From a virus (Duplodnaviria > Caudoviricetes), in IMG/VR virus record IMGVR_UViG_3300017766_003504, positions 1-45,460 of that record: a stretch of DNA of 45,460 nucleotides; one strand, written 5' to 3'. The notes under the pieces are model-generated. The model made no database searches, was not told where the DNA came from, and saw nothing but the letters and a program-made list of their open reading frames with translations. The position numbers and the translations under genes are program-made. Shown one piece after another: positions 23,910-30,564 of this stretch. Numbering within the stretch: position 1 is the first letter of the stretch; each line of letters starts with the position of its first letter.

Positions 23910-24194
23910 GTGAAACTCGCGCTTTTGCCCCTCCTAGCTCTTTTGGTGGGTGGTTGCACGTCAATCCCCACCCCAAGGGGCACAGCGCGATTTTGGGGCG
24001 ACTACAAGAGCGTTGAGCTTGTGGATGGTCCTTTTCGATTTTCCGCCACTGACATGAAGCACAGCGCTGTTGCGCGTGCTCACTGGAAAGGCGCTGCCAG
24101 TGTTGGTGCCCAAATTGTTGCCGGGGCAATTGGAGTAAGCCAACCCGCGACCGGCGCGAGTGCGGCAGTAGCAACGCAAGTTTTCTCTCCTTAG
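23910..24194 (+). CDS. Lipoprotein, possible spanin
   Basis: Signal peptide with lipobox 'LLVGGC', C-terminal hydrophobic stretch; last gene of the lysis cassette. Confidence 0.55.
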   Translation: MKLALLPLLALLVGGCTSIPTPRGTARFWGDYKSVELVDGPFRFSATDMKHSAVARAHWKGAASVGAQIVAGAIGVSQPATGASAAVATQVFSP

Positions 24195-24601
24195 AACATG
24201 TGGGCTTGCCCGTGCCGCTCCCTGTTCCCTTTGGCAATGTTTTCGCTGTAAGGGAGAACCTGTAAATTTCCCTTGGTGTAGCCACCCCAAGTAATTTTTC
24301 GGTCTATGTGGTGAATCTTGGGGTCATACGCATTGGCTTCCAAAAAGGTGTAAAGCCACTCAATGTCTAAATCGAAAGGGACACCATTTGCTTTTGCCCG
24401 TTTGCGTAGGTTAGCCAGTCTCGCCTTTAGTGGGTTGCAAGCCCGCCAAACGCGCATCTTGCACCCGCTACAATAGCCCCCGCCCCTTTTGCACTGTGGC
24501 TTTCTGCAATACCTAGTGACACAAATTCCTGTGCGTTTTCTGGTGTTCATAGTGTGTTTAAGCTGTTTGCCGCGCATCCGGGTTGGACGTTTGCGCGGCA
24601 T
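24191..24601 (-). CDS. HNH-type endonuclease with N-terminal Cys cluster
   Basis: 'HHIDRKITWGGYTKGNLQVLPYSENIAKG'; CxxxxC...C...CxxC. Confidence 0.7.
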   Translation of the reverse strand: MPRKRPTRMRGKQLKHTMNTRKRTGICVTRYCRKPQCKRGGGYCSGCKMRVWRACNPLKARLANLRKRAKANGVPFDLDIEWLYTFLEANAYDPKIHHIDRKITWGGYTKGNLQVLPYSENIAKGNRERHGQAHMF

Positions 24602-26869: not shown

Positions 26870-27048
26870 GCCTCAAAATATGCAACAGCAATCGCCCATT
26901 TCCAAAGCCTACGTTGGTTTTTCCGTTTATGGATATATGGCTGAAAACACTCGCGTAGGCAAGCGTATCTAAAATTATGCAATACGCGAAAACGCATAAG
27001 TTGGGGAAGGGAAAGCCAGAATTTTTGAAAAACGGGTTTGGGAATCAT
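26866..27048 (-). CDS. Hypothetical protein
   Basis: 60 aa, downstream of an operator/promoter motif at 27069. Confidence 0.45.
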   Translation of the reverse strand: MIPKPVFQKFWLSLPQLMRFRVLHNFRYACLRECFQPYIHKRKNQRRLWKWAIAVAYFEA

Positions 27049-27095
27049 GGTGCGAAAAGGTTTTCACGTCTTGCACCAACACGCAAGAGAAATCT

Positions 27096-28901
27096 TCAAT
27101 CTTTCTTGTAAAAAGGCACTTCCCCGCCTTCCGCTTCAATTGGCAACCCATCCGCCCAAGCGGGCATATCGGTCAAGCACTCCACAAACCTTTCCGCTCG
27201 TTGGCCGGGGGTTTTGTATGCTAGTGCTTGGTCATGGATTAATGCCATGATGCCAAACCCGTCTGCTTCGGCGTTGTGGGCACCCTGACACATAATGTCA
27301 GCGGCAACCGCTTGGGTGATGTTTTCCACCAATTTTCCCCCGTACGTGTCAACGTCGCCCCACTGTGTCCCAATGATGTGCCCGAAAAACTTGATTGCAA
27401 GCTTGCCTTCAAACTTCGGTGAGGGAACAAGCCGGGGGCGTGGGTAAGCCAGTTTGCGACCAGACGGAAGTTTGCAAAACAGAAAAGGCAAACCGTTGGT
27501 GTGCTCATACAGGAAATGCACTGGCACCTTGTACGGTCCAAGCCGCTTATTCGACACCCTGACTATCTCCCCACGGTGCGCAATCGCCCGCTGTGCCGCG
27601 TTCTCCACGTCATACCAATAGCTTTCAACCCGTGCATGTTTCTCGCGGAAGGCTGTCACGGCGAGCCGGGCAAGGTCCAACTCACATTTGTAGCGTCCAA
27701 GCTTCCAGCACGTTTGCACGAACTTTTCCCCACCTTTGCCCATGCCAAAGCCGCAATTGTGGACAAGCACATTTGACACTGTAAAACGGTGGCGCGGTCC
27801 CGCATTCAAAATGTCGTAAGTTGCAACAATCTTTTTTGAATGGTTCTCCAACCCTTGCGTTTCTCTGTTACTGATTGCCTCGCTTTCGCTAGTATTTGCT
27901 CCCTGTCCATCCCAAGAGTTAGGTATTTCCTCACCGTGAACTCGCAATAGGGCCATTCCGGGGCTAGGTAAAGCAGATTTATTTTTGGAACTGACTGGTT
28001 TAGGATTTGTGTTCTCCGCGTGACATATCTTAGGTTTCCGGGGGCGTAGTGTCCTTCGTTGTCCTTCCTGTCTAGCTCTAGGTGTCTCTTCAAGCCTAAG
28101 TTGTCCATCACCCAATGGGCTGCTTGTATAGCGGAAGGGAATAGAAATTGGATTCCACGCCCCCCGTACCAGTGGAACGCTTGGTTGTCTGGATTGGTGC
28201 AACGGTCCTTCGCTGCTTGCATCCGCGACACCAACCACTTGGGGGCACGTCTGATTTGTCTTTCCTTGTGCGCGCATGGGTCGCACCCCAAGCTTGCGCC
28301 GCGCGCTAAGGTTCTGTGGTCTATAAATGTCACTGTTCCACACACGCATTGCACCTTGGCAACCCTGTATTGTTTCCGAAGGTAAACTTGTTTGCTTATC
28401 AGCTTCCACCGTCCGAATCGGTGCCCCTCCTTTTCCAGAAACAAGCAACCTTTGCTTCTGTTCCCTCGCACTCCGTAAATTGGTTGTTCGTTCAAGTCCC
28501 ATGCTATCACGGATAAAGACTTGGTGGCATGGGGTTGCGGTAAGCCCTTGGTGTGTGATAACTTCCTTGTGTCCTTGGTAGATAACTCCATCATGGTTTA
28601 CCCACTCTACCCCATCCCAAACGCGGTGCCAACAACAAACTTTCTCAATTGGAACAAGCCCAAAATCAGTTAGCACAAGCTCCCCCTCTGCGATGCAACC
28701 CAAGATGGTTTGTTTCCCAATGAACCGTTGCGGGTGCTTGTTTACTTCCTCATAGGGCACCCTGAAGATAAATGACGCCATCGTTTTATATCGGTCCAAG
28801 CCTTGCCGGTATTCGTCCAATGCATCTTCCTGTCCCGCGAGCCAACATACAATGCGGGCTTCAATGGCAGCGTAGTCAGCGTCAAAAAGGGGACGGGTCA
28901 T
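27096..28901 (-). CDS. DNA polymerase family A, C-terminal part, intein-containing
   Basis: Motif A 'DADYAAIEAR', motif B 'RFIGKQTILG/CGFGMG' split by the intein, 'ENITQAVAAD', motif C 'IHDQ'. Confidence 0.9.
   Translation of the reverse strand: MTRPLFDADYAAIEARIVCWLAGQEDALDEYRQGLDRYKTMASFIFRVPYEEVNKHPQRFIGKQTILGCIAEGELVLTDFGLVPIEKVCCWHRVWDGVEWVNHDGVIYQGHKEVITHQGLTATPCHQVFIRDSMGLERTTNLRSAREQKQRLLVSGKGGAPIRTVEADKQTSLPSETIQGCQGAMRVWNSDIYRPQNLSARRKLGVRPMRAQGKTNQTCPQVVGVADASSEGPLHQSRQPSVPLVRGAWNPISIPFRYTSSPLGDGQLRLEETPRARQEGQRRTLRPRKPKICHAENTNPKPVSSKNKSALPSPGMALLRVHGEEIPNSWDGQGANTSESEAISNRETQGLENHSKKIVATYDILNAGPRHRFTVSNVLVHNCGFGMGKGGEKFVQTCWKLGRYKCELDLARLAVTAFREKHARVESYWYDVENAAQRAIAHRGEIVRVSNKRLGPYKVPVHFLYEHTNGLPFLFCKLPSGRKLAYPRPRLVPSPKFEGKLAIKFFGHIIGTQWGDVDTYGGKLVENITQAVAADIMCQGAHNAEADGFGIMALIHDQALAYKTPGQRAERFVECLTDMPAWADGLPIEAEGGEVPFYKKD
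27756..28697 (-). mobile_element. Intein (314 aa) in polymerase motif B
   Basis: Starts CIAEGELVLT (block A), has 'ATPCHQVF' (block B TxxH), 'TYDI' (block F), ends VLVHN followed by Cys+1. Confidence 0.9.
27806..28594 (-). CDS. HNH-family homing endonuclease in an alternative (+1) frame inside the intein
   Basis: 'RFGRW', 'CVCG', 'GCDPC', 'RCTNP...WYGGRGI', 'LDRKDNEGHYAPGNLRYVTRRTQILN'. Start codon uncertain. Confidence 0.82.
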   Translation of the reverse strand: MMELSTKDTRKLSHTKGLPQPHATKSLSVIAWDLNEQPIYGVRGNRSKGCLFLEKEGHRFGRWKLISKQVYLRKQYRVAKVQCVCGTVTFIDHRTLARGASLGCDPCAHKERQIRRAPKWLVSRMQAAKDRCTNPDNQAFHWYGGRGIQFLFPSAIQAAHWVMDNLGLKRHLELDRKDNEGHYAPGNLRYVTRRTQILNQSVPKINLLYLAPEWPYCEFTVRKYLTLGMDREQILAKARQSVTEKRKGWRTIQKRLLQLTTF

Positions 28902-29128
28902 TTTCTGGAAACATAGGTAATTTCCAAACGAGGAAAGTCCAGATAGCTAAATGAGCATATACCTTCGTAACTTGTGACGCATACAAGCCCGCCCATGTGT
29001 GTATGCAAAGAATGACACTCTGTGGCATCACCGGGAGGGAGATAGTAGATATATCCTACCTTTTCCCCTTCGCAGCGAAGCAAATACGGGATTGGGGTGT
29101 CTGACTTATTAGTTAGTACTATTTTCAT
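28898..29128 (-). CDS. 76-aa hypothetical ORF inserted between the two polymerase halves
   Basis: MKIVLTNK...YVSRK; ATGA overlaps at both ends. Confidence 0.6.
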   Translation of the reverse strand: MKIVLTNKSDTPIPYLLRCEGEKVGYIYYLPPGDATECHSLHTHMGGLVCVTSYEGICSFSYLDFPRLEITYVSRK

Positions 29129-30314
29129 ACGTCTTGAACAAAGTGCCTTATACACGAACTAATGACTTCCAACACCGGACCATAACAGATTTCCAGCATC
29201 TCCCGTGAGCACCCTTCGCAAATCATTTTATAGGCTCCCTCGCTGTCCTTAATCGTGGGGCGTTTCATGTTCTGAAACTGGACTAGGCTGTTGGTGCTTC
29301 GCCCCGTGGTAGCCCCGTGGTGATTCAGCATCCCCCGGATTCGGTTGTCGCCCGGTCCAGCGCAATCCAGCATCGTTTGGACCTTCTTAATAGACACGTA
29401 AGCAACGGATTGCTTCATGCGGAGCGCAGCAAGCCAGTCACACGCAAGGTCATCCCTTACGTCTTCGTATTTCTCTAGCAGAGTGTCAATCGTCTCCGCT
29501 TGGAGGTTATCTAGGTGGCACCCTTGCGAATGTAGCCACTCAATAAAGACCTTGTTTTGGGTGTATTCAAATCCGGTGAGTTGTCGAAAACGCGCTCCAA
29601 CAATTTCGGTTTCTTGGTCAATAAGGGTTTGGGCGTGTCGTAGCGCATCCAAATTGACAGCAACCCCGCGAGCGTTAATGGTTTCATGTAACGTGTAATT
29701 GGCGTTGTTGATTGGTTCGTCAAAGTAACTTAGCAACTTGGTTGCCCCACGCTCAACAAGTACGTCCGTTTTGCAGTATTCCAGCAACTCCGCGAACGCT
29801 TCCGGTTCATCCTGTGGGTAGATTCGGCGCACCGGCAACGCTGGTTTTTTCAATGTGGCTTCCTTCGCTTTTTGCATCTGGCAAAATTTGCGAATCAACA
29901 CCTTACCCTTTTTGTCTTTTTGCGTGGTTAGCTCCAACACTTCCCCCAACTTTTCCAGACTCCCCGGTAAAGCAGCGCGGCGGGCCAGTGACATGGCGCA
30001 ACGCCAGCGGGAGATATGCGGCGGCTCAATGCCCCACGTCTTGAGCATAAGCGCGGAAGATATGGCTATCTCGAATTGGGCGCTGAACGCATAGACCAAC
30101 GTTTCCGGGTCTTCCAAGGCGTCAAGATACTTGTCAAATTCGTTTGACTCTCCCTCTTTTATTCCTGCTTTCCAAATCCACGGTGCTTCATCCCCAATGC
30201 CATTGCAGCGCAAAGTATTTCCGTGCTTGGGTCAAAGGCATAGCGGTAAGCCCCAACGTCTTTCAAATCGACTTCGGAGAATGTTTCAAGATCTATGTGA
30301 AGACGTTGGGGCAT
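29125..30314 (-). CDS. DNA polymerase family A, N-terminal part (3'-5' exonuclease + thumb), frameshifted near 30192-30195
   Basis: ATG 30314 gives MPQRLHIDLETFSEVDL (ExoI motif DxE). The frame changes at a G4 run into ORF 29125..30213, which has 'AFSAQFE', 'YCKTDV', 'INARGV', 'HGATTGRS', 'QFQNM'. Confidence 0.82.
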
Positions 30315-30564
30315 GTTACTATATTTTTTGGTCCGGTTGTTTCGCTCCGTAGGTTATACGGGATTTTCCTTCTACTGTCACCGGCTTACGGTGCTTCGCG
30401 CCCGCTGGACAATTTGGATAGTCCGCATAATTAAGGAAAGCACACCAAAAAAGTTACTTTCGTCCCTTGAACTTGACGCCAAGCTTGCGCGCTAGTCTTA
30501 GGAGCAATGGGAGTTTGCGGTTGTTGGTCTTTCCTGTGCCTTTGCTGATTGTCTTTGGCACAAC

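Follow-up and report, generated by a model that had tools for sequence, protein, structure and literature searches.

The 45,460-base virus record analyzed here, hereafter the window, probably carries a homing intein with an endonuclease encoded as a gene of its own, overprinted on the intein in the +1 frame of the same strand. The earlier note on this DNA had proposed a dual-coded mobile element with an in-frame passenger and a separately made nuclease, and this proposal was supported by conservation across a family, frame-specific selection, AlphaFold models, and patchy occupancy of the insertion site. Intein endonucleases are normally in frame with the splicing domain; such a canonical bifunctional arrangement was not found here.

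Among the genes of the window are those for terminase, portal, and major head protein, and its replication module comprises a primase, an exonuclease, an ssDNA-binding protein, a family A polymerase, and a helicase. Downstream of the helicase lies a second, free-standing endonuclease gene (24191-24601, minus strand; PHROG 3322 / endonuclease VII, E ~1e-11). The C-terminal ORF of the polymerase (28901-27096, minus strand, 601 aa) is interrupted by a 314-aa insert at 28697-27756. On the same strand, the 68-aa N-extein of this ORF (28698..28901) contains motif A and matched PF00476 at aa 5-70, and the 219-aa C-extein (27096..27755) gave PHROG DNA polymerase matches with E ~1e-33 and 3121 homologues. 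The N-terminal part of the same polymerase is a separate ORF (29125..30213, minus strand; PHROG 17, E=1.1e-21). Between these two parts, immediately ahead of motif A, a 76-aa ORF of unknown function (28898-29128, minus strand) interrupts the gene and is joined to the polymerase parts on both sides by ATGA stop/start overlaps; in this region, Rfam reported no intron and the atlas matches were all below 0.9. The relative P0051 is split at the same place. Because 14 of 120 related polymerase proteins likewise start within 15 aa of motif A, and the relative P0053 is continuous, the split looks natural and would correspond to a two-subunit family A polymerase. An apparent link between the split and the presence of the intein was put down to the polymerase search, which took in proteins of 330-1052 aa, and was discarded.

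The insert is a class 1 intein placed in motif B of the polymerase, between KQTILG and CGFGMG (27756..28697, minus strand), as the earlier note had described it. Its frame is stop-free, and the splicing residues were located at C1, T54-x-x-H57, the block F Asp, H313-N314, and the +1 Cys. Together with a Hint fold and the existence of intein-free alleles, the N-terminal Cys, TxxH, C-terminal His-Asn, and +1 Cys are those of a class 1 intein, for which splicing is predicted. In the AlphaFold model, the ends reached pLDDT values of about 90 or more and the middle was disordered. The N-terminal splicing region, with blocks A and B (about aa 1-90; 28428..28697, minus strand), was modeled at pLDDT 88-97 over residues 1-90, and its C, T, and H columns were invariant in 84 sequences; the C-terminal region, with blocks F and G (27756..27833, minus strand), was modeled at pLDDT 93-97, with D and N invariant in the same number of sequences. 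Between them, an in-frame passenger of about 198 aa (27834..28427, minus strand) was predicted to be disordered, with pLDDT 37-62, no secondary structure, and a pN/pS of ~1.5-1.65. The Foldseek matches listed for the intein model were inteins or Hint domains (best E=0.006, probability 1.0). Sequence profiles gave less: Pfam Hint_2 was matched, weakly, in 7 of 84 family inteins, and a PDB search with the intein profile returned weak intein matches alone (E 0.2-0.6). The intein frame of the window showed no Pfam or NCBIfam match, a PHROG match at aa 25-66 only, and neither an endonuclease match nor an endonuclease fold, in line with the earlier reading that its middle lacks endonuclease motifs. 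A group I intron has a ribozyme core and usually interrupts the host frame; this candidate was ruled out by the lack of any Rfam intron family over 27000-30500, the open host frame, and the protein-splicing residues.

One base out of phase with the intein frame, and wholly inside the intein, lies a 262-aa ORF with an ATG start (27806..28594, minus strand), coding for an HNH-like (beta-beta-alpha-metal) putative endonuclease with Cys clusters. It overlaps block B and its stop falls in the YDIL codons of block F; therefore, it is not confined to the linker. The coordinates and motifs given for it before were confirmed, and HNH similarity, whose absence would have spoken against the proposal, was detected with PHROG 374 (E=7.5e-23), PHROG 3377 (E=1.6e-16), and PHROG 2081, with endonuclease VII at E=0.05 only. 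The protein is thus HNH-like by PHROGs, but no Pfam or NCBIfam match was obtained and Arg occupies the usual His position. The core motifs, read from the translation (28031..28168, minus strand), are YGGRGI (28168-28151), DRKDN (28072-28058), and YAPGNL (28048-28031), and a CxC and a CxxC further upstream, CVCG (28348-28337) and CDPC (28285-28274), may form a zinc site (28274..28348, minus strand). We found 48 homologues of this protein, the best with 55-60% identity over the full length. In 35 of 35 nuclease sequences, C83, C85, C104, C107, and C132 were invariant, as were D175, R176, Y183, and N187, and the last Asn of the motif is Gln (Q196) in the window copy and in 10 of the 35.

In I-HmuI-type H-N-H nucleases, the general base is a His that follows the metal-binding Asp. 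This position is Arg (D175-R176) in all 35 sequences, and because R176 stands where these enzymes carry His, the protein is not a strict H-N-H member. The AlphaFold model of the nuclease folds from residue 50 on, with a mean pLDDT of 82. Its best Foldseek match was I-HmuI, weak at E=1.0 over 42 columns, and PacI came second by VIA-align for residues 118-200 (Z=4.9, rmsd 3.1, 71 aligned), a weak match below an unrelated chain. The likeness to these beta-beta-alpha-metal nucleases thus consists of a top Foldseek and a second VIA-align match, both weak, and the window protein differs in having Arg instead of the His base, its activity being putative. A PDB sequence search with the nuclease found nothing meaningful among solved nucleases; in the atlas, the nearest clusters with a name contain I-HmuI NUMOD-like domains. 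A +1 protein that is made but binds DNA or is otherwise non-cleaving, with D-R for D-H, while the intein spreads otherwise or vertically, is an unlikely explanation: although the invariant Arg, the weak fold matches, and the lack of a Pfam HNH match speak for it, Asp175, Asn187, Asn199, and the Cys clusters are kept under purifying selection, and the free-standing relatives of the nuclease are annotated as HNH endonucleases, a label that is annotation and not assay. We infer that the nuclease works like a homing endonuclease.

Both frames are open for ~790 nt, as the earlier note had seen. When the nuclease frame was recoded synonymously with host codon usage, 9.9 stops were expected in the intein frame, where none was observed, and 0 of 200 recodings were stop-free; recoding of the intein frame in the same way gave 4.4 expected stops in the +1 frame (P0 = 0.01), again with none observed. 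The third frame of the same strand has 21 stops at the overlap. Locus searches with a single sequence of either frame gave no match; a profile search based on an alignment succeeded, and with the nuclease profile it returned at least 573 viral and at least 560 metagenome stretches. From each collection, the 80 best stretches were taken; without the window's own record, they formed a set of 159 loci (best 80+80 set), some of them duplicated between the collections. In this set, the -1 frame was stop-free across the nuclease match in 152 of 159 loci, and the other same-strand frame had 3-30 stops per locus. The seven exceptions were L079, which is 5'-truncated, L137, with a broken intein, and the free-standing nucleases L129-L132 and L144. 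A complete intein was obtained from 141 of 161 stretches (the 159 loci, the window, and the Streptococcus phage Javan113); the other 20 were left out for contig ends, truncations, pattern misses, or as the open-frame exceptions. The 141 inteins fell into 97 clusters at 90% identity (best 80+80 set), 84 of them in PolA motif B at two or three neighboring sites, 11 in SF2-like helicases, and two in DnaB-like helicases, host names being read from the flanking motifs. Extraction required the intein terminal residues but not TxxH of block B, which was present in 97 of 97 clusters (best 80+80 set).

An assembly artefact, in which compensating indels pushed an in-frame HNH out of frame, was evaluated against these loci. 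Raw reads of one DNA run gave only short unrelated contigs, all less than 90% alike, and because they did not cover the locus, the evidence on this point is comparative. The intein frame is collinear with the independent protein P0051 (46% over 315 columns, one gap), and the nuclease has independent full-length homologues at the 55-60% identity given above. The same +1 offset is present in GenBank records of Streptococcus Javan phages (Javan113) and Gardnerella AB1, annotated "DNA polymerase". Homologues with the HNH in the intein frame, the other finding that had been named as fatal to the proposal, were likewise not seen, with no intein end in the nuclease frame in 158 of 159 loci (best 80+80 set); the exception, L116, has intein-N in the nuclease frame, but the frame switch coincides with two N bases. 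On these comparisons, we judge that the overlap is not an assembly error, and give the indel scenario a negligible probability. The out-of-frame overlap is real, kept by selection, and common to many phages. In GenBank, seven of seven full-length matches annotate the polymerase alone over the nuclease.

The per-frame selection analysis and the stop avoidance suggested as a check gave concordant results, the latter being the 152 of 159 open loci described above. Among 51 non-overlapping pairs, the median dN/dS was 0.24 in the nuclease frame vs 1.38 in the intein frame, and it was lower in the nuclease frame in 49 pairs, the other two being not computable. In the core, 21 pairs with at least 70% identity gave pN/pS values of 0.21 for the nuclease frame and 1.65 for the intein frame, with the differences piling up at nuclease third positions (0.28 vs 0.11 and 0.08). 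In the block B overlap (first 13 nuclease codons) of the same 21 pairs, the values were reversed, with 1.79 for the nuclease and 0.14 for the intein frame. The selected frame, therefore, switches: the nuclease frame is under purifying selection in the middle, the intein frame in block B. The predicted models agree with this, the intein ends being folded and the middle disordered, where selection on the host frame may mainly keep stops out. L062 and L139 have a stop in the nuclease frame with the intein frame open; therefore, the two frames can decay independently.

The conserved features around the start of the ORF bear on how the nuclease is made. In the best 80+80 set, a +1-frame ATG was present near block B in 97 of 97 clusters, its position relative to the block B His being -9 codons in 71 clusters, -13 in 18, -23/-22 in five, -8 in one, and +5 in two. 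The -9 ATG is formed where a Tyr/His codon with T in third position is followed by a codon that begins with G. The consensus AAGGAGG lies upstream of the start, across K-E codons, and the duplex with the anti-Shine-Dalgarno (anti-SD) sequence, computed with a generic tail, had a median of -8.2 kcal/mol; for 271 other +1-frame ATGs, taken as background, the median was -2.0. After synonymous recoding, the value was -6.1 kcal/mol, indicating that the K/R-E-V residues by themselves account for some of the family SD; GAG was only modestly enriched. Both the recoding difference (p=0.006) and the use of T at the end of the Tyr/His codon (71/86 vs 520/1234 in host genes, p=1e-13) were significant, with p-values that overstate independence because the clusters are related. 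The -9 and -13 ATGs were nearly exclusive (two clusters with both, 69 with -9 alone, 18 with -13 alone, and eight with neither), and the SD strength tracked whichever of the two was present: before -9, it was -8.2 with that ATG and -1.9 without it, and before -13, in the same order, it was -5.3 and -8.2. The window copy lacks the -9 ATG of the family and has a moderate SD at -23 only; its likely start is the ATG-ATG at 28594/28591, preceded by an SD-like stretch (28599..28611, minus strand; -6.4 vs the median of -2.0 kcal/mol). The closest homologues, P0003 and P0005-P0007, also have a longer nuclease N-terminus. An internal promoter was not supported, as a sigma70-like site at 28632-28604 was at chance level (two found, 1.5 expected) with a similar one in only 10 of 97 clusters, and the mRNA structure at the start site was unremarkable (z=0.6).

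The earlier note had left the choice between internal initiation and a +1 frameshift. A programmed +1 ribosomal frameshift would give the nuclease as a truncated fusion to the polymerase and intein-N, and the location of the ORF in the +1 frame of the same strand, open in the window from 28597, makes a shift inside the intein N-region formally possible. Nonetheless, 42 of 71 clusters have a +1-frame stop immediately before the -9 ATG, which leaves almost no room for shifting, the commonest slippery run was found in just 21 of 97 clusters, and a conserved, compensating ATG and SD would be needless; we therefore regard frameshifting as very unlikely. The conserved compensating ATG and SD, the upstream +1 stops, and the absence of a conserved slippery run favor internal initiation instead.

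Turning to distribution, an intein was present at the window's site in 9 of the 120 polymerases closest in the C-extein and absent from 111; in P0220, the polymerase runs straight through the same junction. On a quick tree of 143 columns, occupancy needed eight changes, at least five of them forced by well-supported branches, and carriers were no more clustered than shuffled labels. The Cys at the insertion site was kept in 91 of 111 intein-free alleles. This patchy occupancy fits homing, though loss also contributes. Extein and nuclease identities correlated (rho 0.72), and therefore much inheritance is vertical; the comparison of these identities showed no clear swaps. The correlation would suit the non-cleaving alternative; against that alternative stand the several PolA and helicase sites at which the element is found and its scattered distribution over the extein tree.

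Some members of the nuclease family are free-standing, outside any polymerase (L129:1936-2724, L130-L132, L144:138-827). L129-L132 keep remnants of intein blocks B and F in the -1 frame, and these are weaker in L144, which suggests that the nuclease gene may be able to leave the intein. Other variants were also observed. L153:452-1024 and L157:326-895 are 255-aa inteins with a +1 nuclease of ~190 aa that lacks the C-terminal helical domain, both frames being open. Each of the host proteins P0052, P0054, P0056, and P0061 has two inteins from the family, in tandem in P0054, and P0056 and P0061 contain short mini-inteins; inteins below 160 aa made up ~18 of 155 pattern-matched among the representatives. 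L079:1886-3202 is a fusion of the nuclease ORF with a helix-turn-helix-like ORF upstream of it; the 5' polymerase and intein-N are missing, probably by deletion.

In the homing intein proposed here, the polymerase ORF would be translated straight through, as the open frame and intact splicing residues indicate, and the Hint domain would splice out with its ~200-aa unstructured passenger, restoring the polymerase. On the same mRNA, ribosomes would start de novo at the SD and ATG within the block B codons, and this internal initiation, to which the conserved signal and the selection point, would yield a free HNH-like nuclease ending in block F. The nuclease would then nick or cut intein-free alleles, with repair copying the element in, in keeping with the patchy occupancy. 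A broader reading, to which we assign about an even chance, is that this is a large and old phage intein family, with hundreds of loci and PolA and helicase hosts, whose nuclease has remained out of frame because the block B codons also spell out its ribosome-binding site and start codon and evolve together with them. It would be a stable, separately expressed design and not a passing stage, with a nuclease that may cut with a non-His (D-R) site and can leave the intein as a free-standing gene with intein relics, as in L129-L132 and L144. Many seemingly nuclease-free phage inteins carry a hidden putative nuclease overlooked by gene callers, and the family offers a natural case of ~790 nt dual coding with selected frame switching at domain borders. 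It also makes testable the published hypothesis that same-strand out-of-frame nucleases are intermediates toward in-frame inteins; no credible in-frame form was found among the 159 loci (best 80+80 set). Direct tests are possible in cultured phages, since Caulobacter RW/GB2A and Shewanella SFCi1 carry a related element.

The possible precedent raised in the earlier note does exist, since same-strand out-of-frame intein endonucleases have already been described. According to the accessible text of Gosselin et al. 2025 (bioRxiv 10.1101/2025.01.02.630785), frame 3 of phage inteins can encode an EndoVII-like nuclease, and LAGLIDADG/VSR nucleases also occur in antisense orientation. Both that class and the window element show a contiguous intein with an unstructured in-frame middle, a beta-beta-alpha-type nuclease in another same-strand frame, and a patchy distribution. 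The window thus shares with this non-canonical class the open host frame and separate nuclease ORF, but not the EndoVII-like nuclease in frame 3 (+2): its own is in +1 and HNH-like (YGGRGI / DRxDN), and the hosts are PolA and helicases of non-actinobacterial phages, a comparison made with the main text of that paper. Phillips, DeSimone, and Gogarten (bioRxiv 10.64898/2026.09.14.751524), who credit Gorbalenya 1998, describe in the portion available a cyanobacterial dnaX intein with an out-of-frame LAGLIDADG in +2. It resembles the window intein in its out-of-frame homing endonuclease over a disordered linker, frame-dependent dN/dS, and putative SD motifs before the nested start, but it differs in nuclease type, frame, and its chromosomal dnaX host; HNH and APSE go unmentioned in that portion. 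The ShiLan domain (Arsenault, Gosselin, and Gogarten 2025, PMC11855218) comprises, as far as its accessible text goes, out-of-frame HNH inserts without inteins. Like the window element, these place a zinc-finger HNH inside a phage gene that remains open in its own frame, but they lack a splicing domain, use the third frame, and have no detectable ribosome-binding site (a leaderless start was proposed), whereas the window family has a real intein and a conserved SD.

Another known element is the APSE-1 polymerase intein (P45) with the nested P46, a related intein with a homologous +1 nuclease (31% over 138 aa, E=1e-10). RefSeq NC_000935 labels the nested ORF "HNH endonuclease" inside the polymerase CDS, and the annotated P46 is confined to the 3' portion of the open frame; the accessible text of one APSE paper (PMC7313666) mentions the intein and not P46 or HNH. 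It differs from the window intein in lying at another PolA site, C-terminal and before motif C, and in its nuclease subfamily. This second site, with a related intein and the other +1 nuclease subfamily, was observed in L162:2685-3353 (APSE-1) and L164:2685-3362 (SFCi1). Shewanella SFCi1 and the Caulobacter phages have the same arrangement. A literature search, mainly of openly accessible papers, found no paper on a +1 HNH intein family of PolA and helicases or on its start in block B. Collectively, the layout of a same-strand out-of-frame intein nuclease is already in print, and the nuclease type, frame, hosts, and embedded compensating start signal set the window family apart from the published layouts.
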